A DNA stretch of 64,000 nt from contig CAVXEP010000013.1 of assembly GCA_963760795.1 (NCBI GenBank), forward strand, positions 1 through 64,000, given 5' to 3'. Below, piece after piece: positions 2,353-37,615 of this stretch (its first letter is position 1; each line of letters opens with the position of its first letter). The notes beneath the pieces are model-generated. The model was given only the letters and a program-made list of their open reading frames with translations, did no database searches and was not told where the DNA came from. Origin of the DNA: an uncultured delta proteobacterium. Lineage in GTDB: Bacteria; Desulfobacterota; Binatia; UBA9968. The translations under genes were made by a program, and so were the position numbers.

Positions 2353-3303
2353 TTAACGGAGAGCTTCCGCGCCAAGGGAAAAGTCGAAAACCTTTTCCAC
2401 CGCCACCGGCTCTTTAATGCGCAGCGCTTCTCTGGCGGTGTCGAGAATCTCGCGCGCCGCATCGTTGTTTAAAATCCCGGTGAGTGAGATGATCTCGCGA
2501 TCCTCGTCATACATGCGCCGCGCCATTTTGGCATCGCTAACCGCCAGTTTCTTTTGAATGTAGGGAATCATAGTTTCGGGATTGTCCTGATAAAATTTTA
2601 GCGCGCGATTCCAGCCGCGTAGGAATCGAATGATGTTGCCGCGTTTCTGTTTGATCGCTGTATCGGTGGCTACCACGCCGGTTTGTAAATAGCGAATATG
2701 ATCGCGGCCGCGCGCCATGGTGCGAAAACCGCGGTCCACGGCTAAATAAGTTGTCGGCGGCGTCACCAATCCAGCGGCAACTCGGCCGCTCAAGAGCGAC
2801 TGCAAGCGCGCCGGCGAATCCATGCTTAGTAATGTCACGTCTTTCTGGGCGTCGAGGCCTTTGGCTTGCAAGATCCGCCGTGCGATCACCGCGGCGGTCC
2901 CTTCCAAAGAGCCGACGGCGATCGCTTTGCCCTTCAAGTCGCCCGACGTCACGATGGACGGGTGGACGACCAGGTCATGCACCGGCCGGTCGTGGGTGAC
3001 ATTGACAATCTTGATCGGCAAACCGCGCAGCGCCGCCGCCAGACCGCTGCCGGCATGGCAAGTGACATCGATCTCGCCGGACATCAAACTGCTCAAGCCA
3101 ATCACGCCGCGCACCACCAAAACTTGCAGGTCCAATCCCTCCTGGCTAAAGAAGCCGCGCTCTTGGCCGTAGTAAAGATGCGCGTAACTGAGCGTCGGAC
3201 CGGGAATGCTGATGTAGAAACGCTCCGCCGCCACTGCGCGTTGGCTTACGCTAAGTGCCAGCGCAATTAAAAGCCCAACAGTCCCATAGCGAACTTGCTG
3301 CAT
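2353..3303 (-). CDS. NitT/TauT family ABC substrate-binding protein
   Basis: Signal peptide, GFFSQEGLD, DLKGKAIAVGS, C-terminal VFDFSL. Confidence 0.88.
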   Translation of the reverse strand: MQQVRYGTVGLLIALALSVSQRAVAAERFYISIPGPTLSYAHLYYGQERGFFSQEGLDLQVLVVRGVIGLSSLMSGEIDVTCHAGSGLAAALRGLPIKIVNVTHDRPVHDLVVHPSIVTSGDLKGKAIAVGSLEGTAAVIARRILQAKGLDAQKDVTLLSMDSPARLQSLLSGRVAAGLVTPPTTYLAVDRGFRTMARGRDHIRYLQTGVVATDTAIKQKRGNIIRFLRGWNRALKFYQDNPETMIPYIQKKLAVSDAKMARRMYDEDREIISLTGILNNDAAREILDTAREALRIKEPVAVEKVFDFSLGAEALR

Positions 3304-7313: not shown

Positions 7314-7461
7314 ACAGTCGGAAGTTCTCGCTTACGAGTATTTTGACCAGGTGAAATTTAATTCCCCACAATCCCGTCCCGGGGCGTAAACAAGTTAACT
7401 TTTGAAGCCGCAAGCAGTCAGGGATCGATTGCAGCACCAAACAGCGAAAGGGTCCATACCT

Positions 7462-8469
7462 ATGGCTTCAGCAATGCCGGCGAATAAATTAATCATCCGA
7501 ATATTTGTTGCGACCTTTGCGTTCTTTGCGGCCAATCCTCTTCACGCGGCCGCGGCGACGACGACGACGATCCGTGTCGGTTACCCGCAACTGAACGGCG
7601 GCCAGACGCCGCTGTGGAACATCGCCGACAGCAAACTCGATCAGAAGTACAACCTCGACATCAAGCCGGTTTACATCCCCGGCGGTGTACGCCTGACCCA
7701 ATCGATGCTGTCCGGCGCGGTCGATATTGCCATGACCGGCGGCGCGGCGGTCAACGCCATGCTGAGCGGCGCCGAGTTCGTCTACGTCGGCATGCCGGTG
7801 GCCACCTATGCGTTTTCTTTATACGCCCGCCCGGAGATCAAAGAGGTCACCGACCTGCGCGGCAAAGTGCTTGGCGTGATCACCAAAGGCGCGTCTTCCG
7901 ACCATGCCGCCACCGCCCTGCTGAGACAATACAAGATGACCCAGCAGGATATGAAGGTGCTCTACTTCTCGCGCCAGGAAGATGCCCTGGCGGCGTTGAA
8001 TCAGGGCATCGTGCAAGCGGCGGTGCATTCGGCGCCAACGACGTTGATGGCGCGCCGCTTGGGCTTCAAGGAATTGGTCAACATCGGCGCGCTGAAATTG
8101 CCCTATCCGTTTATGGGACTAGCGGTGCGCCGCTCGGCGATCCAGCAAAGTCCCGATGTCGTGCGGGGATTTTTGAAAGCCATGGTGGCCGGCTTAAGAT
8201 TGTCGATCGAGCAGCCCGACATTTCCAAGCGCGCCATCGGCAAATATCTGGCCTCAAAAGATCAAGAAATCATCGACGAGGCCTACCGCAGCTTCGCCCA
8301 GTTGTTCCCGCGGGTTCCTTACGTCACCGACGACGCCATCCGCGCCGCGCTGTCGGTGACCGATCATCCCAAAGCCGCTTCCGCCAATCCCAAGGATTTC
8401 TATGACAACCGCTTTCTCCAAGAACTGGAAAGTTCCGGTTTTATCAAGGAAGTCTACGCCGGAAAATAA
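7462..8469 (+). CDS. NitT/TauT family ABC substrate-binding protein
   Basis: Signal peptide, DLRGKVLGV, FYDNRFLQELESSGFIKEVY. Confidence 0.88.
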   Translation: MASAMPANKLIIRIFVATFAFFAANPLHAAAATTTTIRVGYPQLNGGQTPLWNIADSKLDQKYNLDIKPVYIPGGVRLTQSMLSGAVDIAMTGGAAVNAMLSGAEFVYVGMPVATYAFSLYARPEIKEVTDLRGKVLGVITKGASSDHAATALLRQYKMTQQDMKVLYFSRQEDALAALNQGIVQAAVHSAPTTLMARRLGFKELVNIGALKLPYPFMGLAVRRSAIQQSPDVVRGFLKAMVAGLRLSIEQPDISKRAIGKYLASKDQEIIDEAYRSFAQLFPRVPYVTDDAIRAALSVTDHPKAASANPKDFYDNRFLQELESSGFIKEVYAGK

Positions 8470-8579: not shown

Positions 8580-9776
8580 CTATAAAGACTGACGCTGCCG
8601 ATTGTTCTGTTCAGTCACCGCTGGCGCGGTGCCAATACGCGCGAGGACTGCGCGCAAACTCGAACGCATGCGTTCCATCGACCGGGCCAAATCTCCCAAC
8701 TCGTCGACGCGTTTGGTGCCTACGCTAGCGGAAAAATCGCCCCGGCCGATGCGTTCCGACTGCTCTACCAACTCAAGCAGGGACCGATGCGAGTCGCGCA
8801 ACAAAACGATGAAGACCCAGGCCACACCGGCTACGACCAATAACCCCAGCAGTAATACCGGCCCCACGAACGGCCAAGTCGCCGCCGCGACCGAGTCGTG
8901 CCAGACCCCTATGTGCACGACAAAGCGATGGTTAACGCCGCTGCGCTGAGCGTGATCATAGACAATTTCGTTGCGGTAGCGCACCCGCTGTTCAGCGGTC
9001 ATCAATCGCGGCGCCAGCGACGGCCGGCGAGTTAAGTGATCAGGCATGTCTGTCGGCGCATGGGCGATCAACTCGCCTGCGTCGTCCTCAATATAAGCGT
9101 AGGCTATGGTGGGACGAGCAATGACTTTAGCCAATTCCTTGCGCAGCTCCCGGTACTGCGCGCCGTCGACATGCCAAACCGTCGTGGTATTGACCGCCAT
9201 CGCGACGATGCCGGCCCGCGCCTTTGTGCTGCGCTCCGCCGCGCCGTAGAGGTAGCTATAGGTTATCGAGCTCGCCGAGATGGCGACAAAAAGGCCGATC
9301 GCAATAAACGCAACGATCAGCTTACTGCGCAGACAGTTGTAACGAAAGGATTGCAGAGACCAAGAGAGTTCTGGCGGCGGTCCCGGCTCGTCCGCTAAGA
9401 TCGGCGCCTCGACGGCCGGGATCACCCAGACCGGCAACTCGGCGCTTAGCGTCGCCTGGAGCATCGCCCGTCTGGCGCCGGCGATAAACAGCCACACCAC
9501 TACACACGCCGCGCCCAGCACCACCATGGGCAGCGCTAAATGCTCGTGAAAAAATATGCCAACCTCGTCTGGCGGGGTAAAGATCACGCCGAGGATCGTC
9601 ATGACTTTGCCCAGTACCTCGATCACACTCCACCCCTTTTCGCGGAGCAGATGATGCTGCAGCAGCAACAAGCAAATTAGCGCAATGACAAGCGTCGGTC
9701 CAACAAGCCTACGTTTCATGTTCGATCTTTGTCCAAATAACTCGGCATTAACCTTGCCACCTAATTGGGAAACCAT
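8580..9776 (-). CDS. Membrane protein with C-terminal HAMP domain and no output domain
   Basis: Several TM helices, an extracytoplasmic domain, and RIGRGDFSASVGTKRVDELGDLARSMERMRSSL (HAMP) at the C-terminus. Start is 9776 or 9719. Confidence 0.72.
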   Translation of the reverse strand: MVSQLGGKVNAELFGQRSNMKRRLVGPTLVIALICLLLLQHHLLREKGWSVIEVLGKVMTILGVIFTPPDEVGIFFHEHLALPMVVLGAACVVVWLFIAGARRAMLQATLSAELPVWVIPAVEAPILADEPGPPPELSWSLQSFRYNCLRSKLIVAFIAIGLFVAISASSITYSYLYGAAERSTKARAGIVAMAVNTTTVWHVDGAQYRELRKELAKVIARPTIAYAYIEDDAGELIAHAPTDMPDHLTRRPSLAPRLMTAEQRVRYRNEIVYDHAQRSGVNHRFVVHIGVWHDSVAAATWPFVGPVLLLGLLVVAGVAWVFIVLLRDSHRSLLELVEQSERIGRGDFSASVGTKRVDELGDLARSMERMRSSLRAVLARIGTAPAVTEQNNRQRQSL

Positions 9777-9940: not shown

Positions 9941-11212
9941 TCACTTTTGCATCGCCGCCAGCGCCTGTTCCACCAACTTACGCCGCAGTTTCTTCTCGTC
10001 CTCTGCCGATACCTTGGCATCGCCGACCACATGGACGATGCCATTGCCGAGGACCAGCCGGTTGGCACCAACCATTTTTGCCACCGGCAGTGCCGCGGTA
10101 ATTTGCACCGTGGGGATTCCAGCTTTTTCCAACTCCGTGGTGATCGCAGCGCCGCTGCGAGTGCTGGTCCCTCACGTCGAGGTGAGGATAATCGCATCGA
10201 TACCCAACTCTTTTGCCTTGGCCGCCATCTCCCGCCCCATGCGCCGGGTGTTCGACAATGGATTGGACAGCCCCGAAGTGGAAATAAATTCTTCGTGCAA
10301 CTGACCGATCACGCCCTCCCGCTCGAGGTCGCGCATGACGTCCAGCGGCACCAGCCGGTCCGGGTCCTGGCGGACAAACTGCGGATCGTAGCCGCCGTGG
10401 GAAATCTCATAATCGGCGCCATTCAAATCCTGGCAGTCCTTGATGCTGTAGCTGCCCCAGCGCGTCGCCGCCGAACCCTGGATCTTATCCGGGTTGCCCT
10501 TCGGCACCAGCCCACCGTCGGTGACCAGCATCACCTTCGCCTTGGTTAAATCGGCGATCGCCGGCGGCAGCGGCACCGGCGCGAATTGAGTCGGACTCAT
10601 CTCGCTATCGAACGCTTCGCCCTTGACCTTTTTAAGCACCATATCGACTAGCCGCTGGCCGGCGGAGCGCTCGACAAACTGATCGCGAATCAAGCCGCGA
10701 GCGATATAACCTTCGACCCTAGGGCTGCCGATACTCTCACCGCGCAGGAGCTTTTGCGCCAAGGCTGCCATGCGCGCCAGCACATCGCGCATCTTCGCGC
10801 CATTATCCCCTGAGTCGACGATATACATGAACTCGCGGTAGAGATCGGCGCCGGGATTTTCCGCCGCCATGGCGGTGACGACGGGAATGTTCAATTTATT
10901 TTGCACCGCCGCGCACAGAGCCCCCGCCGCCATGCCGTAGCGCCCCGCTAAGAAGCATGGCCCAGCGATGAACAGTTCGGCATTCGCCGCGCGAACTTTC
11001 TCCAACACCTTGGCGGTTAGCGCTTCCTGATTTTCCACCGCGTAGTTATCGCCGCAGACGAGTGTCGTCACAATATGACACTCGCCGCCTAAAAGCTGCT
11101 CAAGTAGCTTGCCCGGTCCCACCGCACCATCGCGAATTTCCAGCGCGATTCCGGCAAGTTCTTCACCGCCGAGTCCGCCGAAAAATTGATTTAAATAATG
11201 TACGATTCGCAT
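9941..11212 (-). CDS. grdB: Glycine/sarcosine/betaine reductase selenoprotein B family protein (Sec at codon 347, UGA 10172-10174), 423 aa
   Basis: MRIVHYLNQFFGG, GPCFLAGRYG, LVTDGGLVPKGNPDKI, HGGYD, DPDRLVPLD. ORFs 10172..11251 and 9941..10132 are in frame across UGA: IILTST-U-GTSTRSGAAITTELEKAGIP. RBS GGAG upstream. Confidence 0.9.
10144..10160 (-). promoter_or_regulatory. Putative bacterial SECIS hairpin of the grdB-like gene
   Basis: UGA + 11 nt (GGGACCAGCAC), then UCGCAGC-GGC-GCUGCGA: perfect 7-bp stem with a G-initial loop. Confidence 0.72.
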
Positions 11213-11238
11213 TGGATTGCTCCTTGTAAGATCTGCCG

Positions 11239-11262
11239 CAGGGCGCAGCATGCTGCGCCCTG
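11239..11262. repeat. Perfect 24-bp palindrome (REP-like) between grdE and grdB
   Basis: cagggcgcagca/tgctgcgccctg. Confidence 0.7.
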
Positions 11263-11308
11263 ATCTTTTGTGTAATTTGCGTTCTTTGCGGCCAAACTCT
11301 TTATCATC

Positions 11309-12584
11309 TCAGTAAACGGTGGAGCGCAACCGTGACGCCCCCTGCTGATTTGCGACGCCGATCACGTTGAGCGAATCGATTTCCAACGGGCCGGCGAGCA
11401 GTCTCCGCCAGACCGCTATTGGCCGCGATCACGCGCTCGACTTGCGGCAGCTTCCAATGGGTGTCATTGCCGCCGATGCAGACGATGGCGTCGACCTCGG
11501 GGAAGTTGAAGAGTAGGGCTGACTCAACCTTATGATCCCGCGCCGCATCGGTGACTTGTACCGCGGTCTTCACGCCCATGATTTCTAACAATCGCGCGGT
11601 CTCCGACAAATCCGTATGCGGCACGCCGCCGCCGAACTTGGTCAGCACCGCCGCGTCGGCGCGCAGTGCCCACTTGGCAAGATTGGCGGCAAAGCGGGTG
11701 TTGCGCTCGCGGTCGAAATTATTCGCCGAGGCGATGGTCGCCACCGTGCCGGCGAAATTTATCTCGCCAGTCCGATGACGCCGGTAGAGTTCGAGAATCA
11801 CCGGATGATTTTGATAGAAATAGGTTTCCGCGCCGCCGATCGACGCGTGGTACGACGGCACCAACGCCCCGTCGAGCCACTCGTTGGGATGGAGCAACGT
11901 CGGTAACATGCCGTCAGTGTCGGCGCCGTAAAGAATATGCTCATCGGCTTCCGGTTTGCGCTGGCGCGAAAAAATTTGGCCAATGTAAGCGAGCCGGGGT
12001 AAGCCGGCGCGCGTCTCGGAGTCCGCGTTATCAAATACTTCAGTCCGGGCTGGTGCAGCGGAGAAAGCCGCCTGTGCTAGGCGCACGGCGATTTTCAAAT
12101 GAGCTAAACGATAAGCACGCTGCCGTGCGGCCGCAGGAGTGTTCGGCCGAGTATGCGGCACGACGATCAAGTGTTGCAGCGTGCCATAAGGCGAGCCCGC
12201 CGCCGGCGCGCCGCTCATTTCGAGGACGTAGCCTGTGGCGCCGCGCGAATCGCCCGAAGAGTCTTCGCGCAACATGGTCACCGCTGCACCCGCCAGCGCA
12301 TGACTCGTACCGCTGCCGGCAGTATGCGGCGCGCCGAGAATCCCCGGCCAGTCCGGGCTGCCGCCCGGCGCTTTGGCGCGCGGCTCGACGATATCGAACA
12401 CCGGCCCGGCACGCAGGCTGTCGTTGGGCGCGGCGACGGCGAAGTCGACCGCGTCGATTAGCGGATCTTCGAGGACGATGGCGCGCAATTCGTCTTGGCT
12501 GACGGTCAGCGCCGTGCCGTCCAAACTCAGGCGCTCGCCGAAACCAATCGAATTAACCGGGTGATAAGCCAGTGTCAGTTGCAT
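11309..12584 (-). CDS. grdE: Glycine/sarcosine/betaine reductase component B alpha/beta proprotein (GrdE/GrdI-like); frameshift near 11401
   Basis: DIVEPRAK, EMSG, PTLLHPNEWLDGALV, TYFYQNHPVILELY, TKFGGGVPHTD. The alternative frame gives a family-like end LEIDSLNVIGVANQQGASRLRSTVY* (TGA 11309-11311). Confidence 0.82.
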
Positions 12585-12631
12585 AGACTCTTTCCCAGCA
12601 GACTTAGTACCGGAGCAAGGATTTTATCAAT

Positions 12632-13612
12632 TCACGAACCCGGCTGCCAGCCTTTGGCCTGCAGCGCCGCGTTGGCTTTGCGCACGAATGAGAAATCGAA
12701 CACCTTTTCCATCGGCGGGATTTCTTTCAATCCGGCAGTCTTAGCGACAAAGGCCGCCATTTTCTTTTGCGCCTCTTCAGATGAAGTACCATCGGCGGTC
12801 ATGGTCGGCCTCGACGAATCGTAAACTTTGGCGGCGATGCCATCGTCGATCTTTAGACTCTTGGACAACACCTTGATCGCGCCGCCGCGATTGTCGCGCG
12901 AGTAAAGAAATCCCATCATCGACGCGCGCACGAAGCGCTCCACCAGCGGCGCATCGGCGCGCAGCATCTCATCCCGAGCGACGATGCCGCCTCCCGGCAG
13001 CAGTAGACCCTGCTCGCGAAACACCACCAGCTCGCGGAAGCCGGCGTCTTTGGCAGTAAAGGTAAACGGCGCGATGATCATCGCGCCATCCACGGCGCCG
13101 CTGATCAAACTGTTCACCCGCGTATCCGCTGCGCCCATGCTGAGAATCGTCACGTCGCGGTTGGCGTCCAAGCCGTTGGCTATCAAAACCTCGCGCAAGA
13201 TCAGGTCGTCGATCACGCCGGGTCCGGACACCGCCAGCTTTTTACCGCGCAGCAATTTCAAATTTTGCAGCTCGTTCTTGGCAAACAGCACATGCTGCGG
13301 CTTGTCAAAGTGTACCATCAGAACCTTTAAAGCACCGGTGCGCAGCGCCGTGTTAAGCCCCACCAGCGGCACGGTGGAGAACTCCACGCTGCCGCTCAGC
13401 ACGGCGAGATTGGCCGTCGGCGCGCGCATGGCGATCAATTCGACGTCCAAGCCTTCGCCGGCGTAATAGCCGTTTAACTTCGCGGTGAGAAACGATAGGC
13501 CGGCGATGGTGTACCCCGGCATCGCGACGCGAACTTTGCGGCTTTGCGCGCTTAGGTCGACGGAACCCAACGAAATGATAGTAACGACGCCGATCAATAT
13601 CCGAAGAATCAT
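12632..13612 (-). CDS. NitT/TauT family ABC substrate-binding protein, first gene of the grdE-grdB operon
   Basis: AGGAG RBS, signal peptide, LRGKKLAVSG, VFDFSFV. Confidence 0.87.
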   Translation of the reverse strand: MILRILIGVVTIISLGSVDLSAQSRKVRVAMPGYTIAGLSFLTAKLNGYYAGEGLDVELIAMRAPTANLAVLSGSVEFSTVPLVGLNTALRTGALKVLMVHFDKPQHVLFAKNELQNLKLLRGKKLAVSGPGVIDDLILREVLIANGLDANRDVTILSMGAADTRVNSLISGAVDGAMIIAPFTFTAKDAGFRELVVFREQGLLLPGGGIVARDEMLRADAPLVERFVRASMMGFLYSRDNRGGAIKVLSKSLKIDDGIAAKVYDSSRPTMTADGTSSEEAQKKMAAFVAKTAGLKEIPPMEKVFDFSFVRKANAALQAKGWQPGS

Positions 13613-13736
13613 GCTGGCAACTCCTACCGTTGCTTTGCGCCTCGACTGCACGAGATGTAGTTGGGCAGAGAGCGCTTGTCAATTGACCACCGGGAAAGAA
13701 TTGATTACTTCAATCAAGACCGCAACGGAGACAAAC

Positions 13737-20296: not shown

Positions 20297-21172
20297 TTAA
20301 GATGGTAGATAGCCTTTTTCGGCCAGATAAGCGCGCAGGGCATTGCGCCAATGCGGCATGGTGATGGCGAATTCTTGCTGCAACCTGGCGCTCGCCAGTG
20401 CCGAGTTTTTCGCCCGGCGCGCCGGTGTCGGAAACTGCGACGAGGCCACCGCGTCGAGCGGTGCCGTCAATTGGCAAAGTTCCAAGGCCGTCTTGGCGAA
20501 CTCGAACCAGGTACAAGAGCCGCTGTTAGCCGCGTGAATAATTCCTCTGGCATCGCCAGCGATCAGTTGAGCGATCGCCTGCGCCGCATCGCGAGTGTAA
20601 GTCGGCGAGATTTGAATATCGTCGATGACTTTCAGCGGCTCGCCTTTGCGCGCTCTGGCGAGGATCGTCTCAATAAAATTACCGCCCTTACCGCGCGCGC
20701 CGGTCTTGCCGAATAGGCTGGCGACTCTGACAACCGACCAGTCCGGCACCGCCTGCTCGACTAAATACTCCCCCGCAAGTTTTGACGTGCCATATACGTT
20801 GATCGGCGCCGGCACATCGGACTCGATGTAGGGCGTATCTTTGCCGCCGTCGAAAACATAATCGGTGCTGATGTAAATGCATTTCGCGCCGCTCTCAGCG
20901 GCAACCCGCGCAACGTTAAGCGCACCGATGGCGTTGACGGCAAAGGCTTCGCGCGCCAGCGATTCACAGTCATCGACTCGGACAAAAGCAGCACAGTTAA
21001 TGATCGTTTGAGCCTTGAGCGGCAACAAAACCTGGCGCACCGAAGCCAATTCCGAGCATTCAATCCGACTATGGTCGAGTGCGATCACCTCGAAACGATC
21101 GGCAGCCCGCAGAATCTCGACTAGGTCATGGCCCAGTTGGCCGCTACTGCCGATAACAACGACGCGATCCAT
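20297..21172 (-). CDS. rmlD: dTDP-4-dehydrorhamnose reductase
   Basis: GSSGQLG, ISTDYVFDG, YGTSKLAGE, SPTY. Confidence 0.95.
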   Translation of the reverse strand: MDRVVVIGSSGQLGHDLVEILRAADRFEVIALDHSRIECSELASVRQVLLPLKAQTIINCAAFVRVDDCESLAREAFAVNAIGALNVARVAAESGAKCIYISTDYVFDGGKDTPYIESDVPAPINVYGTSKLAGEYLVEQAVPDWSVVRVASLFGKTGARGKGGNFIETILARARKGEPLKVIDDIQISPTYTRDAAQAIAQLIAGDARGIIHAANSGSCTWFEFAKTALELCQLTAPLDAVASSQFPTPARRAKNSALASARLQQEFAITMPHWRNALRAYLAEKGYLPS

Positions 21173-22221
21173 CAGGAGGTCTTGCCCCAATTCTGGGCGT
21201 AAACCGATTCGTAGTAGTTGCGATATTCACCCGAAGTCACCCGCGCCACCCAGTCGGCGTGGGACAAATACCAATCGACAGTCCGTTGTAAGCCGACGGG
21301 AAACTCCACGCGCGCTGTCCAGCCCAGCTCATTCCGTACTTTGGCAGTATCGAGGGCGTAGCGCCGATCGTGGCCGGGACGGTCGGTGACGTAGCGGATG
21401 CGCGCGGTGAGTTGGCCTAGGTCAACGCCCTTGTGCGCCGCGAGGGCACCGCAGATCGCTTCGACCACGGCGAGATTACTGCGCTCTTCGCTGGTGCCGA
21501 TATTATAAATCGAACCTATCTGGCCTTTCTCCAGGACCGCCAACAAAGCCCGGCAGTTATCCTCGACATGAATCCAATCGCGGATCTGCAAGCCGTCGCC
21601 ATAGACCGGGAAGTCGGAATCGCCGAGACCGTTGCGCAAGAGCAATGGGATGAGCTTTTCTGGAAACTGATACGGTCCGTAATTGTTCGAGCTGCGCGTG
21701 ATCAGAATCGGCAATCCATAGGTACGGCGATAGGAGAAACAGAGCAGATCGGCGGCGGCTTTGCTCGCCGAATAGGGACTGCTTGGGGCCAAGGAAGAAT
21801 CTTCGTTCGACGGCGCCTTGGCTTCCTTATCGCCATAAACTTCGTCGGTGGAAATGTGCAGGAAACGCTCCACCGCCACCCGCCGCGCAGCTTCGAGCAA
21901 AGACTGCACGCCGCCGATATTGGTTTGGAGAAACGGCGACGAGTCGAGGATACTGCGATCTACATGGGACTCGGCGGCGAAGTTGACCACCGCCCAGGGC
22001 TGCTCTTCAACAAGCATGCGCTCGACCAGTTCGCGGTCGCAAATATCGCCCTGGACGAAACGCATGCGTTCCCGGCTAATATCGGCGACATTTTCCAAAT
22101 TGCCGGCGTAGGTCAGCTTGTCGAAATTGACAATGCGGTAATCCGTAGAGGTCGACAGCAGGCGAACGAAGTTACTGCCGATAAAACCGCAGCCGCCGGT
22201 GACAAAGATAGTTTTCATCAT
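21172..22221 (-). CDS. rmlB: dTDP-glucose 4,6-dehydratase
   Basis: TGGCGFIGSNF, DKLTYAGN, AAESHVDRSI, STDEVYG, YSASK, DRPGHDRRY. Confidence 0.97.
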   Translation of the reverse strand: MMKTIFVTGGCGFIGSNFVRLLSTSTDYRIVNFDKLTYAGNLENVADISRERMRFVQGDICDRELVERMLVEEQPWAVVNFAAESHVDRSILDSSPFLQTNIGGVQSLLEAARRVAVERFLHISTDEVYGDKEAKAPSNEDSSLAPSSPYSASKAAADLLCFSYRRTYGLPILITRSSNNYGPYQFPEKLIPLLLRNGLGDSDFPVYGDGLQIRDWIHVEDNCRALLAVLEKGQIGSIYNIGTSEERSNLAVVEAICGALAAHKGVDLGQLTARIRYVTDRPGHDRRYALDTAKVRNELGWTARVEFPVGLQRTVDWYLSHADWVARVTSGEYRNYYESVYAQNWGKTS

Positions 22222-22242
22222 TTCTGCCGAAACGCGCAGCGA

Positions 22243-22806
22243 TCAGCCACCGTGAAAGACAAAGCCAGCGTCGGCGTCGCGCAGCCGCGGCCACTGGCGA
22301 TCGCGCGGCGAAAGTTGCGGCGCCGCAACCGGCCAGGCGATTTGCAAATCCGGATCGTCCCAGGCGATACCGGACTCAAGTGCCGGTGCGTATTCATCGC
22401 TGGTCATATACAAGATATCCGCTTCGGCGCTGACGACGCAAAAACCATGGGCGAAACCCGCCGGCGCGTAGAGCATTTTTTTATTTTCCGCGCTCAACTC
22501 CATGCTGACCCATTTGCCGCAGTTCGGCGACCCCTGGCGCAGGTCCACCGCGACGTCGAAGATCGTGCCGGTGATGGCGCGCACGAGCTTGCCTTGAGCC
22601 TTCGGCTGCTTTTGAAAGTGCAGACCGCGCAAGATGCCGCGCGCCGAGCGCGACTGATTGGCCTGCACGAATATTTCGCGAATACCCTGGGCGGCGAATT
22701 CCGAATGCTTGTAGGTTTCCATGAAAAACCCGCGCTCGTCGGGAAACACCCGCGGCTCGATGATAATGACGTCGGCAATGCTGGTGGGCGTAAAAGTAAA
22801 CGGCAT
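22243..22806 (-). CDS. rmlC: dTDP-4-dehydrorhamnose 3,5-epimerase
   Basis: DERGFFME, LRGLHFQ, QGKLVR, GFAHGF. Confidence 0.97.
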   Translation of the reverse strand: MPFTFTPTSIADVIIIEPRVFPDERGFFMETYKHSEFAAQGIREIFVQANQSRSARGILRGLHFQKQPKAQGKLVRAITGTIFDVAVDLRQGSPNCGKWVSMELSAENKKMLYAPAGFAHGFCVVSAEADILYMTSDEYAPALESGIAWDDPDLQIAWPVAAPQLSPRDRQWPRLRDADAGFVFHGG

Positions 22807-23888
22807 CAGAGCAACACTTCGGAGTCGTCGCCGATCATCAAGCGGTAGGCCTGGCGGCTCTTTTGCTCGCGCACCACGGCGGAGTTTTTGCCGAGCAAGC
22901 TATCTTCAAGACGGTCGACAAACTCCACTCGCGCGCTTTCCAACAACAGGCAATGTTCGAGCACGGATGAGATGATGCGGCAGCCATTGCCGATGGAAGT
23001 AAACGGTCCGACGAAAGAGTTCTCAACCAGCACGTGATCGCCGATCACCACCGGTCCGCGCACGGTGCTATTGACGACGCGGCTGCCTTTGCCCAACCGC
23101 ACTCGCCCGGTCACCTGGCTCAGGCCATCGATCTCGCCATCGATCTTGCGCTGCACCCACTCGTCGAGCACGACGGTATTGGCGGTCAACAAATCGTCTT
23201 TCTTGCCGGTGTCAAGCCACCAGGCATCGATGCGATGGCTCAAAACTTGGCCGCCCTGGCTGAGCAACAGCTGGATCGCGTCGGTGATCTCCAATTCGCC
23301 GCGCCAGGAGGGCGCGATCTTGTCGATGGCATCGTGAATTTTTGCTGTGAAAAAATAAATGCCAACTAGCGCGAGATTGGATTTCGGTTGCTTCGGTTTT
23401 TCCACCAGACTGAGCACGCGCTGTTGGCCATCGACTTCGGCGATACCAAAGCTTGACGGGTTGTCGACTTCCTTCAGCAAGATCGAAGCAACCGCAGCGG
23501 ACTTTTCAAACTCTTCGCGAAAGCTTTCAATTCCCGATCCGATGAGATTATCGCCCAGATACATAACAAAGGCGTCGTCGCCCAGGTAGGGCCGCGCCAC
23601 TTTCACCGCGTGAGCGAGGCCGAGGGGCTCGGTCTGCTCGATAAACGAGACGCTCATACCCCAGGCGCCGCCGTCGCCCACAGCGTCGCGAATCGCCTGG
23701 CCGGTCTCGGGTGAGATCACGATGCCGACGTCATTGACCGCGGCTTTTTGCAGGTTATCGAGGACATGGAACAAAATCGGCCGATTAGCCACCGGCACGA
23801 GCTGTTTGGCCGCGGTGTGGGTAAGCGGACGCAGCCGGGTGCCGCGGCCGCCGCTCAAGACCAGCCCTTTGAGCTTATTCGCGGCCAT
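22806..23888 (-). CDS. rmlA: Glucose-1-phosphate thymidylyltransferase (long form)
   Basis: GGRGTRLRPLTHTAAKQLVPVAN, RGELEITDAIQ, WLDTG, C-terminal hexapeptide domain. Confidence 0.95.
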   Translation of the reverse strand: MAANKLKGLVLSGGRGTRLRPLTHTAAKQLVPVANRPILFHVLDNLQKAAVNDVGIVISPETGQAIRDAVGDGGAWGMSVSFIEQTEPLGLAHAVKVARPYLGDDAFVMYLGDNLIGSGIESFREEFEKSAAVASILLKEVDNPSSFGIAEVDGQQRVLSLVEKPKQPKSNLALVGIYFFTAKIHDAIDKIAPSWRGELEITDAIQLLLSQGGQVLSHRIDAWWLDTGKKDDLLTANTVVLDEWVQRKIDGEIDGLSQVTGRVRLGKGSRVVNSTVRGPVVIGDHVLVENSFVGPFTSIGNGCRIISSVLEHCLLLESARVEFVDRLEDSLLGKNSAVVREQKSRQAYRLMIGDDSEVLL

Positions 23889-25602: not shown

Positions 25603-26619
25603 CTAACGGTCGAACATCCCCTCACGGTCCAAACGCTCGACAAACGACGAATCCACCAGAGACGCTAAGTTAACGCTCTTGGCCTTAGGATTGGACTCGG
25701 CGATTATTTCCAGCAGAATCTTCATCGCGCCGATATCGGCATAAGGTTTTTTCAACATCATTTCACGATAGGTTTCGTAGCCTTCCTCGATCATGGCGCG
25801 GTTTTTCTCCAGCGGCAGGCGCAGATACTTCGCCAAGATCTTCATACTGTCGTCTTTGTTGCTCTTGTTGCGGTAGAACTGCATGCCCTCGGCCAGGCCG
25901 GCGACAAAGCGCGCCACCATGCGGCCATCGTCGCGCAGGGTTTTCTCCGACACCGCGACGATGTTACGTAAATAGGGCACATCCAGCGGCGCCAGATCGA
26001 CGAGCAAGCGATATCCTTCCTTCGCCGCCAGCGTCGTATAGGGCGGATCGAGGATCGCCGCCGGCACGCGATTGCCGAGCAAGGCTTCGAAGCGCGCGCT
26101 CTTGCCGCCGATGTTGAGCGGCACGACCTGCTCCTTGGTCAGACCGAGCTCGCGCAAACAGAGCAGCAGGCCGGTGTAGGGCAATCCGGAAAAGCCGGTG
26201 ATCGCCACCGACTTGCCTTTGAGATCGGCCGCCGAGCGGATCGACGGATGCACCGTCAAGGCAAGATTCAACCCGCGTGCCGTGCCCATCACCATCTTCA
26301 CCGGAAAGCCGCCGAGAGCGCTATGCACGACCTTATCCGGCGACGTCAGGTCGAATTGAATATCGCCCGACACCAAGGCATTGATGTCGTTGCTGCGGCT
26401 GAACGTCACCATGCGGGTATCGAGCTCACGCCGCTTGAAGAACCCTTTCTCCTCGGCGATGTATGCCGGCAAATACATCGCCCCGCGCACTCCCTCGCCG
26501 ATGATGATCGACTTGGTCTGCGCATTTGCCAGCACCGGCATTAACAGCACCCAGAAATAAATCAGCCGGGTCGCGAACTGCCGATTCTGACCGATTATTC
26601 CATCACGCCAATACTCCAT
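25603..26619 (-). CDS. NitT/TauT family ABC substrate-binding protein
   Basis: TAATG-coupled to the upstream gene; AEEKGFF, DLKGKSVAI, VDSSFVERLDREG. Confidence 0.86.
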   Translation of the reverse strand: MEYWRDGIIGQNRQFATRLIYFWVLLMPVLANAQTKSIIIGEGVRGAMYLPAYIAEEKGFFKRRELDTRMVTFSRSNDINALVSGDIQFDLTSPDKVVHSALGGFPVKMVMGTARGLNLALTVHPSIRSAADLKGKSVAITGFSGLPYTGLLLCLRELGLTKEQVVPLNIGGKSARFEALLGNRVPAAILDPPYTTLAAKEGYRLLVDLAPLDVPYLRNIVAVSEKTLRDDGRMVARFVAGLAEGMQFYRNKSNKDDSMKILAKYLRLPLEKNRAMIEEGYETYREMMLKKPYADIGAMKILLEIIAESNPKAKSVNLASLVDSSFVERLDREGMFDR

Positions 26620-28245
26620 TACTCCACTCCTCGCTCGCGCACCGCCACCGTCTGCATTCGCGTCGCGGTGCGCCCCGGAATATACGCCGACTTGGCGCCC
26701 GCGCCGCCGGCGACCACGAGCCAAATATCCTCGGGTCGGTCGATCACGCCAACCTCGCGCAACCTACCCGGTGTGAACCACAGGGGCCGCCGTTTGGCGA
26801 GCAGCTCTAAGTTTTCATCGGCGATCTTGTCGTAGGGCACACGAGCTTGAGCGAACAACGCTTCGCGCAGTTTCGCCTTGGAATAACCATCCCGCGCCAG
26901 GATCGCCGCATGCTCGGGGCAAATCACCCAGAGCACTTCGGTCGAGGTCACGCCACTGGCCAAACCGCCGGTCATCGTCAGCGCGAAAGTCTTGAGCAGA
27001 CCGGTTGCCGACTGGCTCGCCATGTCGACCGCGCTATAAATACCGCTGGCGCCGAACATATGAACCGTATCGCAATCGCGCGCCAAGCCGCGTTCGACAT
27101 GAAAGGGCTCCCAAGGATTCTCTTCTTCGTTTTCAGCGAAACAAAAAGTGTATTTGGCCGGCTGCCCCATGGTCGATTTATCGAAACCGCCGGGTCGAGC
27201 ACCGCCGATATTGGTCAAGACGAATCGAATCGCCCGGCCGATGGTCGCGTTGGCGCGCCAGCCCTGGCCGAGCACGTTGGCACCGTAATTAATCGCCAAA
27301 GTATTGCGGCAGGGGCCGTTGACGATGGCCAGCGGCGCGATATTGCCCGTGGTCGTTTGCAAGCCATCGAGGTTGTAGCCCGGCCGCGTCATGCCGCGCA
27401 GCGCCGCGAGCACCAGCGGGAAATAGTCCGGCAAGCAGCCGGCCATCACCGCATTGGCGGCGATCTTTTCGACCGTGGCAACGCCGTTCAGCGGCGGAAT
27501 GACGCCCAATACGCGCATCTGCCGTCTTGCCGCCGGCGGCGAACATTGTCTGCACCGCCGCTAACGTCGGCGGCAATACCGGCAAACCGTCGGTCCAGCC
27601 GCGCTCGAAAAAGTAACCGAACATCTCGGCGGGATCGCTGGGAGCGTATAAGCTGGAAGCCGTGTTGCCTTCGCTGGCATGCGCGGATAATGCGAGATCG
27701 CGCGCATTCGCACCATTGCCGCTCACTAGTTTACCGGCAATGGCATCGACCACCGACTCGGCCACTGAGCGTAGAGCTTCAAGCGAAATTGTCCCGACCG
27801 GATGGGGCACTTTAACCAGCGGCAGATTCGCCATACCACGCGACCGAGTTTCCGCTTGCGCCAACGTCCAAAACTCGCTGCTCACCACCGTCGCCGTGGC
27901 GACTCCCGCGCTTTCCAGTTGCACCGAGTCGTGGACACTCCACGACGTGCACGAGCCTCAATCGGCGAAGGCGTTGATAACGACATCGCAGCGGCTGGCC
28001 AGCGCCGCCAAACCATCCGACTCCATGCGGGTCATCTTGCGCTTGGTCACCAGTTCGATATCGGGATGACGCGCCTGGAGAAATTCGCCGATGAATTGCA
28101 AAAACTTGTCGGCGTTGGGCTTGTTGTTATCGAGCAAGCCAACGCGCCGGCCGGCGAGGTTTTCGTAGCGGCGCGGCGCTAATTTGCTCGCTTGCTGGCG
28201 TGGGACGCCGATCGGATTGACGATTTCAATGACATTTTCCATCAT
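26619..28245 (-). CDS. UGSC-motif selenoprotein (Sec96, UGA 27958-27960) fused to a GWTDGLP/AVMAGC-type domain; one frameshift near 27516; ~541 aa
   Basis: GLLDNNKPNAD...INAFAD-U-GSCTSWSVHDSVQLESAGV is in frame with ORF 27289..27924. GWTDGLPVLPPT then continues after a 1-nt shift into VLGVIPP...VEKIAANAVMAGC (ORF 26619..27518). Confidence 0.85.
27920..27951 (-). promoter_or_regulatory. Putative bacterial SECIS hairpin of the UGSC gene
   Basis: UGA + 11 nt, then GUCGUGGA-GUG-UCCACGAC (8-bp stem); lower stem UGCAC/GUGCA with a 3-nt bulge. Confidence 0.78.
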
Positions 28246-31080: not shown

Positions 31081-32103
31081 ATGTTTTTCCGACCCAACAC
31101 TTCCACGCTCCCTTACGCCGATTTCGTGCTCGTGCTCGTGACTTGCTTGCTCAGCGCGGCAACTTCATCGGCCCAACCGCTCCTTAAAGTCCCTTTTCCC
31201 TATTCGCCGATAAATACCAGCGCGCTGCCGTTCATGATCGCCAAGGATGCCAAGATTTTTGAAAAGCACGGCGTCGACGTCGATTTGATTTTCATGGGCG
31301 CCTCGGCGCTGATCATTCAGTCGATGCTTTCCGGCGCAGCGAATATCGCCGGCTTCGGCGGCCCGGCAATTGTTACCAACGTATTGCGCGGTGGCGACGT
31401 GATTTCGGTCGCTGCCACCGTGCCGCTGGCGCAACCAATGATCACCCGCGCCAGCATCGAGAAGCCGGAAGATCTCAAGGGCAAAAAGATCGGCATCAGC
31501 CGGCTGGGCGGGATTCCGCACTTTTCCCTGCAAATGATTCTCGACCGCTACGCCATCAAAGATGTCACCATGCTCCAGTTGGGCACTCAGTCAGAAGCCG
31601 AGATCGGCCTGCGCCGCGGCATTGTCGATGGCGCCATGGTGTCGCCGCCGCAGTCCTTTTTGCTCATCCGCGACGGCTTTCGCGAATTGGTCAGCGCCCA
31701 GGACTACAGCAAATTCACCAGCCGGCTGATTTCCGGCGGCATCGCCGCGCGCCGTTCCTGGGCCGTGAAGAATCGCGACACCGTGACGCGCATGATCAAG
31801 GCGGTGCTCGAAGGCATCAAAGTAATGACCGTACAAGAAAGCCTCGCCAAGAAAACCCTCGCCAAATACACCCGGCAAAGCCAGCCGGAAATCCTCGACC
31901 GGCTTTACAAATTCGCTCAGGACACCTTCGGCCGCGATCCGGCCATGCCGCGCGACGCCATGGTCAATATGGCGAGACTCATGGGTGAATTCGGCCTGGT
32001 CGACCGCACATTAGCCGCCAATACGCCACCGGAAGCCTATTACGACAATACCTACGTCGACGAACTGAAGCAGTCCGGGTTTATCAAAGAGCTGTGGAAA
32101 TAG
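31081..32103 (+). CDS. NitT/TauT family ABC substrate-binding protein (close paralog of 43877..44911)
   Basis: KVPFPYSPIN, DLKGKKIGISRLG, YYDNTYVDELKQSGFIKELWK. Confidence 0.9.
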   Translation: MFFRPNTSTLPYADFVLVLVTCLLSAATSSAQPLLKVPFPYSPINTSALPFMIAKDAKIFEKHGVDVDLIFMGASALIIQSMLSGAANIAGFGGPAIVTNVLRGGDVISVAATVPLAQPMITRASIEKPEDLKGKKIGISRLGGIPHFSLQMILDRYAIKDVTMLQLGTQSEAEIGLRRGIVDGAMVSPPQSFLLIRDGFRELVSAQDYSKFTSRLISGGIAARRSWAVKNRDTVTRMIKAVLEGIKVMTVQESLAKKTLAKYTRQSQPEILDRLYKFAQDTFGRDPAMPRDAMVNMARLMGEFGLVDRTLAANTPPEAYYDNTYVDELKQSGFIKELWK

Positions 32104-34798: not shown

Positions 34799-35199
34799 CA
34801 GCGGCCACCAACGCGAGAGGGCATGCCGAGTGCGGACGGTAGGTCGAGCATAAAAAAGGCGCCCCGATTGAGGCGCCTGAGTTGGCGGTACGTTGCGGTA
34901 TCACCCCTAGCTGTAATCCACCCCTGCTGTGCTATGGGGAGGCAAAGCCAAATAGCAGAGCTAACTCTTACACGAGTCGCCAACTACTGACTTAAGCATA
35001 GCGCTGGAAAAGTGGAAGTGAAGACCTTTCAAAAAAAATAATCAAATTTCCTAACCCGTCAAAATGCCCGGGTATCCGACTAGAGGTTTCAACCTATGGG
35101 ATGTTGCGGCAATCGTCCCTAAGCCGGCTTCGGGACTCCCTGCGCCGTGGGTCCTTGGTGGCGTGCTTCCTTCCTATGTGAGCGCCGGTGGGATTCTTA

Positions 35200-35499
35200 T
35201 TACCGTCGGTAAGGCGATCTCGGGTTTTGCCGTCGTTCTCGTTGCTCAATTTCCTCCCGCTCGCGCATAAGTTCAGGATAGCAAGCGTCAACGATCAGCC
35301 TAGCGAGTTCCAGACCGACCAACTCGGCTACCTCACGGTTCTCCAACTCGAAGTTGTGTACATTCAGTGTCGTTAGCTCTAACACTGAATTGTCGCGGCG
35401 CTGGTATAGGACGCAAGCGCCAGGCGTCGAGTTATTGCCGCCGGGATAGCCGGGAGTGGCATGCCCGGAAATCCAAAGGTCTTTGTATTGTTCCATCAT
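35200..35499 (-). CDS. Small hypothetical protein (YK...AE..GL..AR..VD type)
   Basis: Coherent ORF with a pattern shared with 36916 and 38066. Confidence 0.6.
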   Translation of the reverse strand: MMEQYKDLWISGHATPGYPGGNNSTPGACVLYQRRDNSVLELTTLNVHNFELENREVAELVGLELARLIVDACYPELMREREEIEQRERRQNPRSPYRR

Positions 35500-35514
35500 G
35501 GTGATGAGTGCGGC

Positions 35515-35763
35515 TTATTTGATCGGTTTTACATAGGCCAACACAATGGCTTTCGCGATGGCGGTTCGGATTCGCTCTGTCTTTATCTCATCGTCTGGAT
35601 TATCACCTAGGTCTGGCAACGAGACCGGAATTGAAACTCTACGCCCTCGAAGGATTACCATGTCCGGAAGACCGTTAGGATCAGGTTCTACATGCCAATC
35701 CTCGGCGAGGCCCATTAGTGCCAAAACACGGGTTATCTCTGCGCCTTGGTCAACGCTCATCAC
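35515..35763 (-). CDS. Small hypothetical protein (82 aa)
   Basis: Co-oriented with neighbours, protein-like composition. Confidence 0.5.
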   Translation of the reverse strand: MMSVDQGAEITRVLALMGLAEDWHVEPDPNGLPDMVILRGRRVSIPVSLPDLGDNPDDEIKTERIRTAIAKAIVLAYVKPIK

Positions 35764-35843
35764 ATTGTCCGCTAGAAATCGATTTAAATCATTCTGAGGG
35801 ACTGAAGGTCAACTATGATTTTTACGAGAGTACGGATGGGCGC

Positions 35844-36104
35844 TTAAGTGGTTAGAACTCCGGCCTCTCTAAGCCCTTGGCGTATTCTTTTTATCGAGGT
35901 TGGACACTGTGCTGTGGCAATTTCCAGTAACCGTAAGGCGTCATTTTCACTACATCGAATTGCACTCATCGGCCAGGGGATAGAGAGACGTGCAGCTTCT
36001 GATTGAAGTAGTAATCGCCCAAGTCGAGAGTCGTGGTCAACGTGATTAAGAAAGAGCTTGACCTCGGTTGGGAACAGCTCAATGAAAATTTCCATCATTT
36101 GCAC
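35844..36104 (-). CDS. Small hypothetical protein (86 aa)
   Basis: Co-oriented, protein-like composition. Confidence 0.55.
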   Translation of the reverse strand: MQMMEIFIELFPTEVKLFLNHVDHDSRLGRLLLQSEAARLSIPWPMSAIRCSENDALRLLEIATAQCPTSIKRIRQGLREAGVLTT

Positions 36105-36532
36105 TCAATTGCGACGTTTCTTGACGAGTTTCTTCTTTCCACGGCGCTTATAAACTTCGAGTTGTTTAGCCCCCATTTTTGCTAAGACAGAAGTAAAAGC
36201 CTTCGTGATCGGCGCCAGTTGAACTGCGTAGTCTGGTTTGTTGTTCGCCGAGATTCACTACGTCGCGCATAGAATGGTGTTCCTTCCGCGCCGTTTTCGG
36301 CGAAAACAAACAGGGTACCAATGATCGCTAAGACAGAGAAGAAACGCTGCATCGTAGCCACGTTTCACGGAGCGTTCTTCTACCGCACGTCCCAGAGATA
36401 AAGCAAGGCGCCGATCGCCATTGCAATTCTCAAATGCGTTAGCCTATAAATTAGCTCCATGCCCTATTGATTCTATCAAGCCCGCGTGTGCCTATTCGCA
36501 TGCAAATTCACGAACAAGAAAGGTGTGACGAT

Positions 36533-36688
36533 ATGGTCAAACCAAATAGTACGTGTCCGAAGTGCGGCAAAGGTGTGATGAAGTTGATACCCAACACTAC
36601 ACCGCTTGATCCTTCGGTCTGGAAGGACTGTCTTCGAGCGCGATGCACTGAGTGCGGACATGTGGACGACATTGCGCTCAATCCGTAA
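36533..36688 (+). CDS. Small zinc-ribbon protein (51 aa)
   Basis: CPKCG...CTECGH; AAAGGT RBS-like sequence. Confidence 0.6.
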   Translation: MVKPNSTCPKCGKGVMKLIPNTTPLDPSVWKDCLRARCTECGHVDDIALNP

Positions 36689-36704
36689 GTGCTAGTGTCT
36701 CCCG

Positions 36705-36788
36705 ATGGATTCCTGGACAATCGTTGCGCTTAGTCTTGGCGTGATCCTGCCACTCTTTATCGTCGTCTGTATAATGTTCTTCCTGTAG
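36705..36788 (+). CDS. Putative 27-aa single-TM micropeptide MDSWTIVALSLGVILPLFIVVCIMFFL
   Basis: Hand-translated hydrophobic ORF directly after the zinc-ribbon gene. Confidence 0.35.
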   Translation: MDSWTIVALSLGVILPLFIVVCIMFFL

Positions 36789-36915
36789 AGCGGCACCTAG
36801 TCCTACGCCCTTTGGCCGATAGTACAGCGGCGCCCGTGAGTGCTATTGCTTAGCCGTGGAATTCCGGAAAATCCTCGTCCTTATCTTCGGCGTGATCGGA
36901 TAATTTAGCAGGCCC

Positions 36916-37140
36916 ATGACAACGGCATACAGGGGTTATACAATCAACGTCACGGCGACGAGGCAGGTGGATGGGCTCTGGAGTGCGAAGATTTTGATTT
37001 GGCCGATAACTGAAACCACTAAAGGCTTGCGCCAACATAGCGAAATAAAAGGCTACTCTAGTCAGGTAAAAGCGGAGCATGCAGGTCTGCAATTGGGTCG
37101 TAAGCGACTCAATCTATACGCCCAAAATAAACTTCGTTAG
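36916..37140 (+). CDS. Small hypothetical protein (74 aa), paralog of 38066..38281
   Basis: YRGYTINV...GLWSA...GYSS..KAEHAGL. Confidence 0.65.
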   Translation: MTTAYRGYTINVTATRQVDGLWSAKILIWPITETTKGLRQHSEIKGYSSQVKAEHAGLQLGRKRLNLYAQNKLR

Positions 37141-37261
37141 TTTCAACCTCACCCGAGCCCAACGACCCGGCGCCAGAGAAAGCACCAGAGGCGTCCAATA
37201 CTGAACAGTAATCTATACCCGGCATGATGGATTGTCTCTAGGACCACCGAGGGAGGTCCTG

Positions 37262-37390
37262 ATGACTATCGCACAAATCGAACTGATCACCGTGAAAACC
37301 CGCGAGGTAATTGATGCTGCCAACCATACGATGGAGTATACAGCAACGATAATCGAGCAATCGAAAAGATTGATGCGCAGCATGAAATGA
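37262..37390 (+). CDS. Putative 42-aa helical micro-protein
   Basis: GGGAGGT RBS; MTIAQIELITVKTREVIDAANHTMEYTATIIEQSKRLMRSMK. Confidence 0.5.
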   Translation: MTIAQIELITVKTREVIDAANHTMEYTATIIEQSKRLMRSMK

Positions 37391-37615
37391 AAAAACACCC
37401 TCCTACGCCCGCGGGTGAAACGCCGGGGTCAGTTGATTCGAACAGATAGGTTCTACGTGGCCAGCGCATTTTCTCTAATCGTGGCGCGCGCCCGCGTCGA
37501 CTGGAAAGCGGAATGAAGCAAAGCGGCCGACAGTGAAAAGCGACTATGACATTTATTGCACCGGGTCAAATCGTAACAGCCAAAAGCCGAAGGGGATTTA
37601 AGGCGAGTAAGGGCC

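Follow-up and report, generated by a model that had tools for sequence, protein, structure and literature searches.

Grd-type reductases serve strictly anaerobic amino-acid fermentation, with energy conserved via acetyl phosphate, and GrdD (component C alpha) is the subunit that forms this acetyl phosphate. UxxCxxC, in which U is selenocysteine (Sec), is the published motif of GrdB, GrdF and GrdH (PMC6778437, PMC13188914; Wagner 1999 as cited in PMC6778437), and a cysteine of the partner subunit GrdE is converted to a pyruvoyl group (Bednarski 2001, as cited in PMC10838667). Betaine reductase (GrdH/GrdI) has a partner subunit that is not processed to a pyruvoyl enzyme (PMC10838667), requires no Schiff base for its substrate and works via GrdA and GrdC. 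The fluoroacetate reductase FarB/FarE of Cloacibacillus porcorum combines a GrdB homolog without the CxxC residues and a GrdE homolog without the processing cysteines, the latter described as ‘similar to grdI’; its Sec has been proposed to attack directly a carbon that bears a good leaving group and thereby to supply GrdA and GrdC, and grdA is up-regulated with the substrate (PMC10838667). Here we describe a related gene pair on the minus strand (9941..12584) of a 64,000-nucleotide stretch of DNA from an uncultured delta proteobacterium of the Binatia (contig CAVXEP010000013.1, positions 1 to 64,000; hereafter the window). We favor, with moderate confidence, the reading that, in a selenium-dependent reductase of the Grd type, this pair is the substrate-specific ‘protein B’ and feeds a shared GrdA and GrdC.

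FarB/FarE is the closest published precedent for the loss of both the CxxC residues and the pyruvoyl site, the likeness to FarB, which is not represented on our tree, being drawn from its published description. The window operon differs in having no radical-SAM or antiporter gene, and the FarB/FarE host is strictly anaerobic and has grdD on its gene map (PMC10838667). Compared with the clostridial GrdABCDE/thioredoxin system, the host of the window likewise encodes GrdA and GrdC, whereas it has no detected GrdD, a partner subunit without the pyruvoyl cysteine and three heme-copper oxidase subunit I genes. We found no published description of a UxxSxxS clade of GrdB or of GrdD-less Grd systems in the literature searched, which did not extend to the supplements (Nobu et al. 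Fig. S6 and Table S5; Lost City Fig. S11).

The GrdB-family selenoprotein gene occupies 9941..11212 on the minus strand and encodes 423 residues from Met14 (MRIVHYLNQFF), where the orthologs start; reading from the first ATG, upstream at 11251, gives 436 residues. The minus-strand open reading frame (ORF) 10172..11251 stops at the TGA 10172-10174 and, with TGA read as U, runs on in frame to a stop at 9941-9943. Read-through translation (...AIILTSTUGTSTRSGAAITTELEKAG...) thus bears out the claim of an earlier note on this DNA, made from the letters, that two ORFs join across the UGA into a 423-residue GrdB homolog reading STUGTSTRSGA. The pair shares the families PF07355, TIGR01918 and PF09338 with clostridial GrdB and GrdE, and the Sec lies at the same position as in glycine reductase GrdB, where the G, T, R, G and A residues after it are invariant as well. 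The protein scores 447 bits on PF07355 (Pfam GRDB; cut-off 22) and 494 bits on TIGR01918 (cut-off 65), a subfamily-level model and the sole NCBIfam model that it passes. It stays below the cut-offs of the GrdB equivalog TIGR01917 (457 versus 602 bits; the Firmicute controls L098, L099 and L108 reach 663-722), of sarcosine reductase GrdF (NF040794, 491 versus 800) and of betaine reductase GrdH (NF040795, 447 versus 775), which carries UxxCxxC in the literature. These scores support the view of the earlier note that the gene belongs to an uncharacterized branch. The GrdB substrate motifs of Nobu et al. 2022 (GPxF[NF]AGRYG; AHGGxD..RV[IL]PxD; TxGNxTxV) are not matched either, the window counterparts being GPCFLAGRYG, SHGGYDP..RLVPLD and STSGLSNPLS.

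An AlphaFold model of the protein (mean pLDDT 88.7, pTM 0.54) places Sec360 (436-residue numbering) between a strand (353-358) and a helix (361-376) whose first turns carry residues 363 and 366. This predicted strand-to-helix position is the usual setting for CxxC- and UxxC-type centers. A Foldseek comparison of the model to the Protein Data Bank (PDB) returned generic two-domain alpha/beta folds only (TM ~0.2) and no specific relative, and a PDB sequence search with the GrdB-like and GrdE-like proteins gave no match at E values up to 0.01.

The UGA at 10172..10174 on the minus strand, codon 360 of the longer reading, is a Sec codon, judging by its conservation. We infer this decoding from the conservation of the TGA, a downstream hairpin with covariation, purifying selection after the UGA and the presence of the Sec machinery. 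All 80 related loci, which were taken from species-representative genomes, have a TGA at this codon. A hairpin of the Sec insertion sequence (SECIS) type spans 10144..10160 (minus strand), with a 7-bp stem (UCGCAGC/GCUGCGA) and a GGC loop. The earlier note had placed a hairpin 11 nt after the UGA, in agreement with its onset at the 12th nucleotide, and it extends over codons +4 to +10, including the Ser at +6. The 68-nt fold that contains it has a free energy of -27.6 kcal/mol (z = -3.2; none of 200 shuffles was as stable). Codons +5 to +9 read CGC/CGT AGC GGN GCT GCG in 64/64 loci with the Ser-type motif UGTSTRS, with AGC, GCT and GCG invariant, whereas the third positions of the flanking codons vary freely.

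The hairpin is homologous throughout the family and occupies the same codons in canonical GrdB. Within its stem, a base pair between codon +6 (first base) and codon +8 (third base) follows the residue encoded at +6: A-U with Ser (64/64), U-A with Cys (12/13, the remaining one being U-G) and G-C with Gly (1/1). The presence of a compensatory stem pair for each residue found at +6 ties amino-acid change at this position to change in the SECIS stem, so that RNA structure constrains the evolution of the active site in this selenoprotein. The ratio of nonsynonymous to synonymous substitution rates (dN/dS) lies at 0-0.12 for the 76 codons after the UGA in pairs with unsaturated dS, is similar before it, and ranges from 0.04 to 0.14 across the whole gene; several dS values were saturated, and the upstream comparison with L034 (dN 0.73) was ignored as an artifact of ungapped misalignment.

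The host encodes the required machinery, with selD, selB and selA clustered on host contig 11 and the tRNA-Sec gene (selC) on the contig of the window itself. Together with the conserved TGA, this upholds the proposal of a genuine Sec protein of the GrdB family. The sel genes are ordered selD-selB-(a 405-residue ORF without a Pfam match)-selA, and selD (C11:1948-2862) itself carries an in-frame TGA, as expected of a Sec-containing SelD. Contigs from public soil metagenomes (four runs) show no difference at 10172-10174 among the 40 of 154 differences listed, which is compatible with the assembled TGA and adds little weight. An Rfam scan of the whole window gave no match at the gathering score, hence no curated SECIS or other RNA family.

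The motif of the window protein is not a local oddity. Among the 80 loci, UGTSTRS occurs 64 times, UGTCTRC nine times, UGTSTRC six times and UGTSTRG once, the UGTCTRC loci being from Firmicutes, of which the three tested pass the GrdB equivalog. In a quick maximum-likelihood tree of 80 rows (L073, L097, L110 and L113 were left out because of short flanks), the 64 UGTSTRS rows and one nested UGTSTRC row form a single clade (SH-aLRT 100). The canonical UGTCTRC clade is separate (SH-aLRT 98), and the remaining UGTSTRC/G rows fall between the two. By record titles, the Ser-type clade contains Candidatus Binatia, metagenome-assembled genomes labeled ‘delta proteobacterium’, Dehalococcoidia/SAR202/Chloroflexota and one Nitrospinota, so that its loci carry four phylum labels. 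The window gene lies inside a 17-row Binatia subclade and the second UGTSTRS copy of the host (contig C20) in a different one; two more divergent host paralogs form long branches whose placement is unsure. The Lost City preprint places SAR202 GrdB copies in a separate clade and lists their clusters as GrdEBCA. By sequence, UGTSTRS marks a well-supported, widespread and uncharacterized branch of the glycine reductase family.

As the earlier note had recognized, both Cys residues of the published motif are Ser in the window protein, each encoded by AGC. The Ser at +3 is encoded by AGC in 57 loci, AGT in six and TCC in one, and its retention through these three codons argues that Ser itself is selected. 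A comparison of 17 clade members with five canonical GrdB sequences shows that cysteines fixed in the latter are replaced at window positions 109, 363, 366 and 385. A Cys has been gained at position 99, within the GPCFxAGRYG loop, in 63/63 Ser-type sequences examined and in 1/14 others.

The GrdE-like subunit gene (11304..12584, minus strand) lies directly upstream, co-oriented, and scores 241 bits on PF09338; its conserved frame would stop at 11309-11311. It reaches only 176 bits on the GrdG model (cut-off 800) and 133 bits on the fluoroacetate reductase FarE model NF053623 (cut-off 675), and so differs from FarE itself. At the pyruvoyl-Cys region, canonical Firmicute GrdE reads DGAIVSGNCVSACDK and the window protein DGALVPSYHASIGGAE. 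The canonical ‘SGNCVSACDK’ aligns to ‘PSYHASIGGAE’, with a His at the pyruvoyl-Cys column and no Cys in the region; the window protein contains a single Cys in total. The four aligned GrdE-like paralogs of the host and the aligned clade members also have no Cys at that column (wrong-frame ORFs for L060 and L096 were ignored), and the loop at the cofactor site is shorter and different in the Chloroflexota members.

As assembled, the GrdE-like gene carries one extra base (11401..11401) relative to L034, L035 and L036, which shifts the last ~32 codons and replaces the conserved C-terminus. This base is absent from soil contigs X1, X5 and X7, i.e. from all three DNA runs that cover the site, each from an independent study. 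Since three soil studies yield contigs without it and other window genes are also split, the extra base is most likely an assembly error and the gene intact in nature.

The frameshift bears on whether the pair is a decaying or inactive relic, as the DCMF genome paper concluded for a B component without UxxCxxC, which it called a likely pseudogene. A relic would account for the loss of the published motif and for the frameshift as assembled, and another GrdB paralog of the host is indeed broken beside a transposase. We nonetheless regard decay as highly improbable, given the low dN/dS on both sides of the UGA, the TGA and SECIS kept in 64/64 Ser-type loci under four phylum labels, the Ser at +3 maintained through three codons and the absence of the frameshifting base in 3/3 independent DNA runs. 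Contigs from an RNA library (X15) cover parts of both genes and point weakly in the same direction, DNA carry-over being possible.

The earlier note had reported no grdA, grdC, GrdD or thioredoxin gene in the window, and this is correct: tblastn detects neither grdA nor grdC within the 64 kb, and the scanned window ORFs contain no GrdD, thioredoxin or thioredoxin reductase (the rest of the host genome was not searched for trxA/trxB; in L074 and L096, the cluster has TrxB-like genes nearby). A single GrdA-GrdC pair is nevertheless encoded on the same contig, 145 kb from the GrdB-like gene. GrdA (C13:157,075-157,515) has an in-frame TGA in a CFVU (CxxU) motif and scores 180 bits on NF040748 (cut-off 130), and the adjoining GrdC (C13:157743-159122) scores 537-539 bits on NF040746 (cut-off 450). 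GrdD was not found: the best host match reaches 24.5 bits against a cut-off of 350, at the sole PF02504 locus, which is probably PlsX. The genome-wide search for the three genes that the earlier note had proposed therefore yields GrdA and GrdC without GrdD.

We scanned 20 other genomes that carry this branch, many of them complete chromosomes. GrdA and GrdC each exceed the cut-off in 19/20, GrdC always adjoining GrdA, and all 18 UGTSTRS genomes have one GrdA-GrdC pair. GrdD exceeds its cut-off in none of the 20, while 5/5 Firmicute controls pass at 559-622 bits. An ORF between grdC and grdA in L074 was considered as a candidate GrdD and ruled out, as it encodes a helix-turn-helix plus glutaredoxin protein. 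In 20 of the 64 Ser-type loci (two Binatia and 18 Chloroflexota), grdC and grdA lie within 8 kb of the pair. The earlier note had held that close homologs with the same Ser motif in a complete, ordinary glycine reductase cluster would count against its reading; such a context largely exists in these 20 loci, although the clusters are not complete, GrdD missing from them as from everywhere else.

Of 121 genomes sampled evenly across the class of the host, 11 have both GrdB-family genes and GrdA, one has GrdB-family genes alone, none has GrdA alone and 109 have neither. GrdC Cys235 aligns with the catalytic Cys112 of FabH (1zow). The GrdD-less genomes have a GrdC subtype of their own, which retains this Cys, is common to the UGTSTRS and UGTSTRC groups and is represented by C13:157743-159122 (L027:10241-11608), L050 and L074-L096: about 20 fixed columns differ from Firmicute GrdC (e.g. 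EEAVGDRY versus EEACGDMN, and His versus Gln at its own position 350) and the C-terminal tail is missing.

The genomes encode one to five GrdB-family genes for one GrdA-GrdC, a ‘several B, one A/C’ layout that has been described for anaerobes (PMC10838667). Five GrdB-family loci, all accompanied by a GrdE-like gene, occur in the host: the window copy (UGTSTRS), one on C20 (UGTSTRS), one on C4 (UGTCSRS), one on C1 (UGTGTRS) and a second, frameshifted copy on C4 (C4:155454-156504; L030:9455-10508). The GrdE-like neighbor of this last copy is also fragmented, and the copy sits beside a DDE transposase and a TIR/AAA gene.

From the missing grdA, grdC and grdD, the earlier note had proposed a stand-alone Sec enzyme that cleaves C-N or C-S bonds of a compound delivered by a binding protein and uses an acceptor other than GrdA/GrdC. 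It could point to the window content given above, to the binding-protein, GrdE-like and GrdB-like genes, which are co-oriented with short gaps in an order kept in the four closest loci, and to two genomes: a 95% complete one with GrdB-family genes and no detected GrdA, and a Planctomycetota genome (UGTSTRG) in which neither GrdA nor GrdC was detected. Yet GrdA and GrdC are present on the same contig and in 18/18 Ser-motif genomes, they adjoin the pair in 20/64 Ser-type loci, GrdA never occurs without GrdB-family genes in the 121 genomes, and the binding protein is one of ten paralogs within 64 kb and absent beside the pair in 60/64 loci. The inference of a different acceptor and chemistry is thus not supported, and a stand-alone enzyme appears quite unlikely, in contrast to the uncharacterized branch, which is.

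We return to the favored reading, that the pair feeds GrdA and GrdC. The pair would consist of a Sec-containing GrdB-like subunit and an unprocessed GrdE-like subunit, and the five B modules of the host would share the single GrdA, a CxxU selenoprotein, and the single GrdC. A partner without a pyruvoyl group would offer no Schiff-base activation, which makes glycine and sarcosine unlikely substrates. The selenolate of Sec360, at the helix N-terminus, may instead attack an X-CH2-COO(-)-type compound at its methylene carbon, X being a good leaving group such as a betaine-type ammonium, sulfonium, halide or sulfonate. The Se-carboxymethyl group would then be handed to the Sec of GrdA, whose own Cys would form an Se-S bond, and Cys235 of GrdC would accept the two-carbon unit as a thioester.

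Since GrdD is missing, the clostridial route to acetyl phosphate is probably not taken, and acetate or acetyl-CoA is the likelier end product. A thioredoxin-type protein may return oxidized GrdA to its reduced state; among the other neighbors of the pair, a DUF255 thioredoxin-like gene is the most frequent. With two Ser residues in the motif, Sec360 would have no neighboring thiol for an internal Se-S bond, a lack that the clade-specific Cys99 may or may not make good. An onium-type substrate, as the earlier note had suggested, is still reasonable, the partner having no pyruvoyl Cys, as in GrdI and FarE; its delivery by the neighboring binding protein has fared less well, with ten paralogs in the window and adjacency in four loci.

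Betaine would fit these features, and the pair could be a functional betaine reductase, analogous to GrdH/GrdI, that releases trimethylamine from glycine betaine or a related betaine to feed the methylated-amine metabolism of the host. The unprocessed GrdE-like partner agrees with published GrdI (PMC10838667), betaine requires no Schiff base, a binding protein of an NMT1/OpuAC-like family is encoded nearby, and the Binatota have been described as methylotrophs using methylamine (10.1101/2020.09.14.296780). The score on the GrdH model, far below its cut-off and lower than that on the GrdF model, speaks against this assignment; the surroundings of the 64 loci showed neither a betaine transporter nor a gene of a trimethylamine pathway, and the several paralogous subclades within the host cannot all share one substrate. 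We therefore consider a betaine reductase unlikely.

Several observations weigh against the reading of the pair as a protein B for GrdA and GrdC. The two genes are not adjacent to the pair in 44/64 Ser-type loci, the window included, so that the proposed coupling rests on co-occurrence, and the two genomes without detected GrdA mentioned above do not follow the pattern. The 12 class genomes with GrdB-family genes represent five genera and overlap with the 20 scanned genomes, making the two samples non-independent. As the host genome is 89% complete, the case for its lacking GrdD depends on complete chromosomes from relatives. In the assembly, the window GrdE-like gene carries a frameshift. Conversion of a Ser to a pyruvoyl group is conceivable in principle, the loss of the cofactor being deduced from the missing known Cys. 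Clustering of the 64 Ser-type neighborhoods revealed no conserved transporter or catabolic gene that points to a substrate. The proposed chemistry, finally, is read from sequence.

More tentatively still, it is possible that the Ser-type pairs, GrdA and the GrdD-independent GrdC subtype together make up a separate class of selenium-dependent reductive C-X lyases in oxygen-respiring bacteria of soil (Binatia) and ocean (SAR202). Such enzymes would use a thiol-free Sec and no carbonyl cofactor to take carboxymethyl groups off betaines, sulfonium compounds, haloacetates or sulfoacetate, GrdC alone would yield acetyl-CoA or acetate instead of acetyl phosphate, and each B paralog would have its own substrate.

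Here the Grd machinery is stripped: GrdA, GrdC and the Sec-containing B subunit are kept, and the flanking cysteines, the pyruvoyl site and GrdD are lost. Its carriers are abundant lineages of soil and sea, as yet uncultured, which possess oxygen reductases as well. If the system is active, it would represent an unrecognized route for the reductive cleavage of carboxymethyl compounds, and an unrecognized selenium demand, in oxic or fluctuating habitats. There are also consequences for annotation, as gene callers end these genes at the UGA and members without UxxCxxC have been dismissed as pseudogenes. The name ‘glycine reductase’ is unlikely to be right for these genes because the cofactor site is missing.

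Upstream of the GrdE-like gene, as the earlier note had described, lies a co-oriented gene for a solute-binding protein of the NMT1/SsuA family with a signal-like N-terminus (12632..13651, minus strand; PF09084, 63 bits; with a start at Met14 the gene would begin at 13612). It reaches 77.5 bits on TIGR01728 (cut-off 163.5), and a PDB search gave distant matches only (E 3e-5 and weaker), with no hint of a ligand. The gaps between the three genes measure 47-52 nt, with 47 nt between the binding-protein and GrdE-like genes. The binding protein is found beside the pair only in the four closest loci, L034-L037 (78-92% identity). Since the window holds ten paralogs of it and synteny is confined to these four loci, its adjacency is likely due to chance, and a functional link to the pair is uncertain. 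The other nine NMT1/SsuA-type paralogs lie at 111-1046, 2353-3303, 7402-8469, 25603-26724, 31081-32103, 43877-44911, 44924-45895, 47388-48401 and 54982-55962; the ten are 21-30% identical to each other, and no ABC permease or ATPase gene is present among the scanned window ORFs, which makes for an unusual density of orphan binding proteins.

Downstream, 165 nt from the GrdB-like gene, the minus strand encodes a membrane protein whose HAMP domain is C-terminal and which lacks an output domain (8580..9776; PF00672, 43 bits). A homolog follows the pair in 11 loci (L034-L038, L040, L042, L043, L046, L047 and L049), all in the 17-row subclade of the window. Clustering of 3,286 ORFs from the 64 Ser-type loci gave the GrdE-like gene in 61 loci, a DUF255 thioredoxin-like gene (~550 residues) in 22, GrdC in 20 and GrdA (its C-terminal part) in 17; clusters three to eight by rank consist of shadow ORFs antisense to the two genes, and the remaining neighbors, which include isochorismatase, luciferase-like monooxygenase, amidohydrolase and SDR genes, are lineage-restricted. 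On host contig C20 (L028:6672-8181, minus strand), the DUF255 gene by the second UGTSTRS pair is split into overlapping ORFs of 143 and 372 residues, while intact versions of ~500-550 residues adjoin the pair in 22/64 related loci.

Elsewhere in the window, an ABC_sub_bind gene (ORFs 41708-42229 and 42204-42695) and an Hsp70-like gene (46006-46737 and 46751-47335) are each split into successive parts of one Pfam profile, which suggests assembly indel errors or pseudogenes. A stretch at 34800-38800 has a G+C content of 0.49-0.55, compared with about 0.58, and contains only ORFs of up to 100 residues, with no Pfam match among them and no Rfam match; it is followed by a truncated ATP-dependent DNA ligase gene (39699-40556). 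A complete dTDP-rhamnose operon, rmlA, rmlC, rmlB and rmlD, is located at 20297-23888, with all four genes above their equivalog cut-offs.

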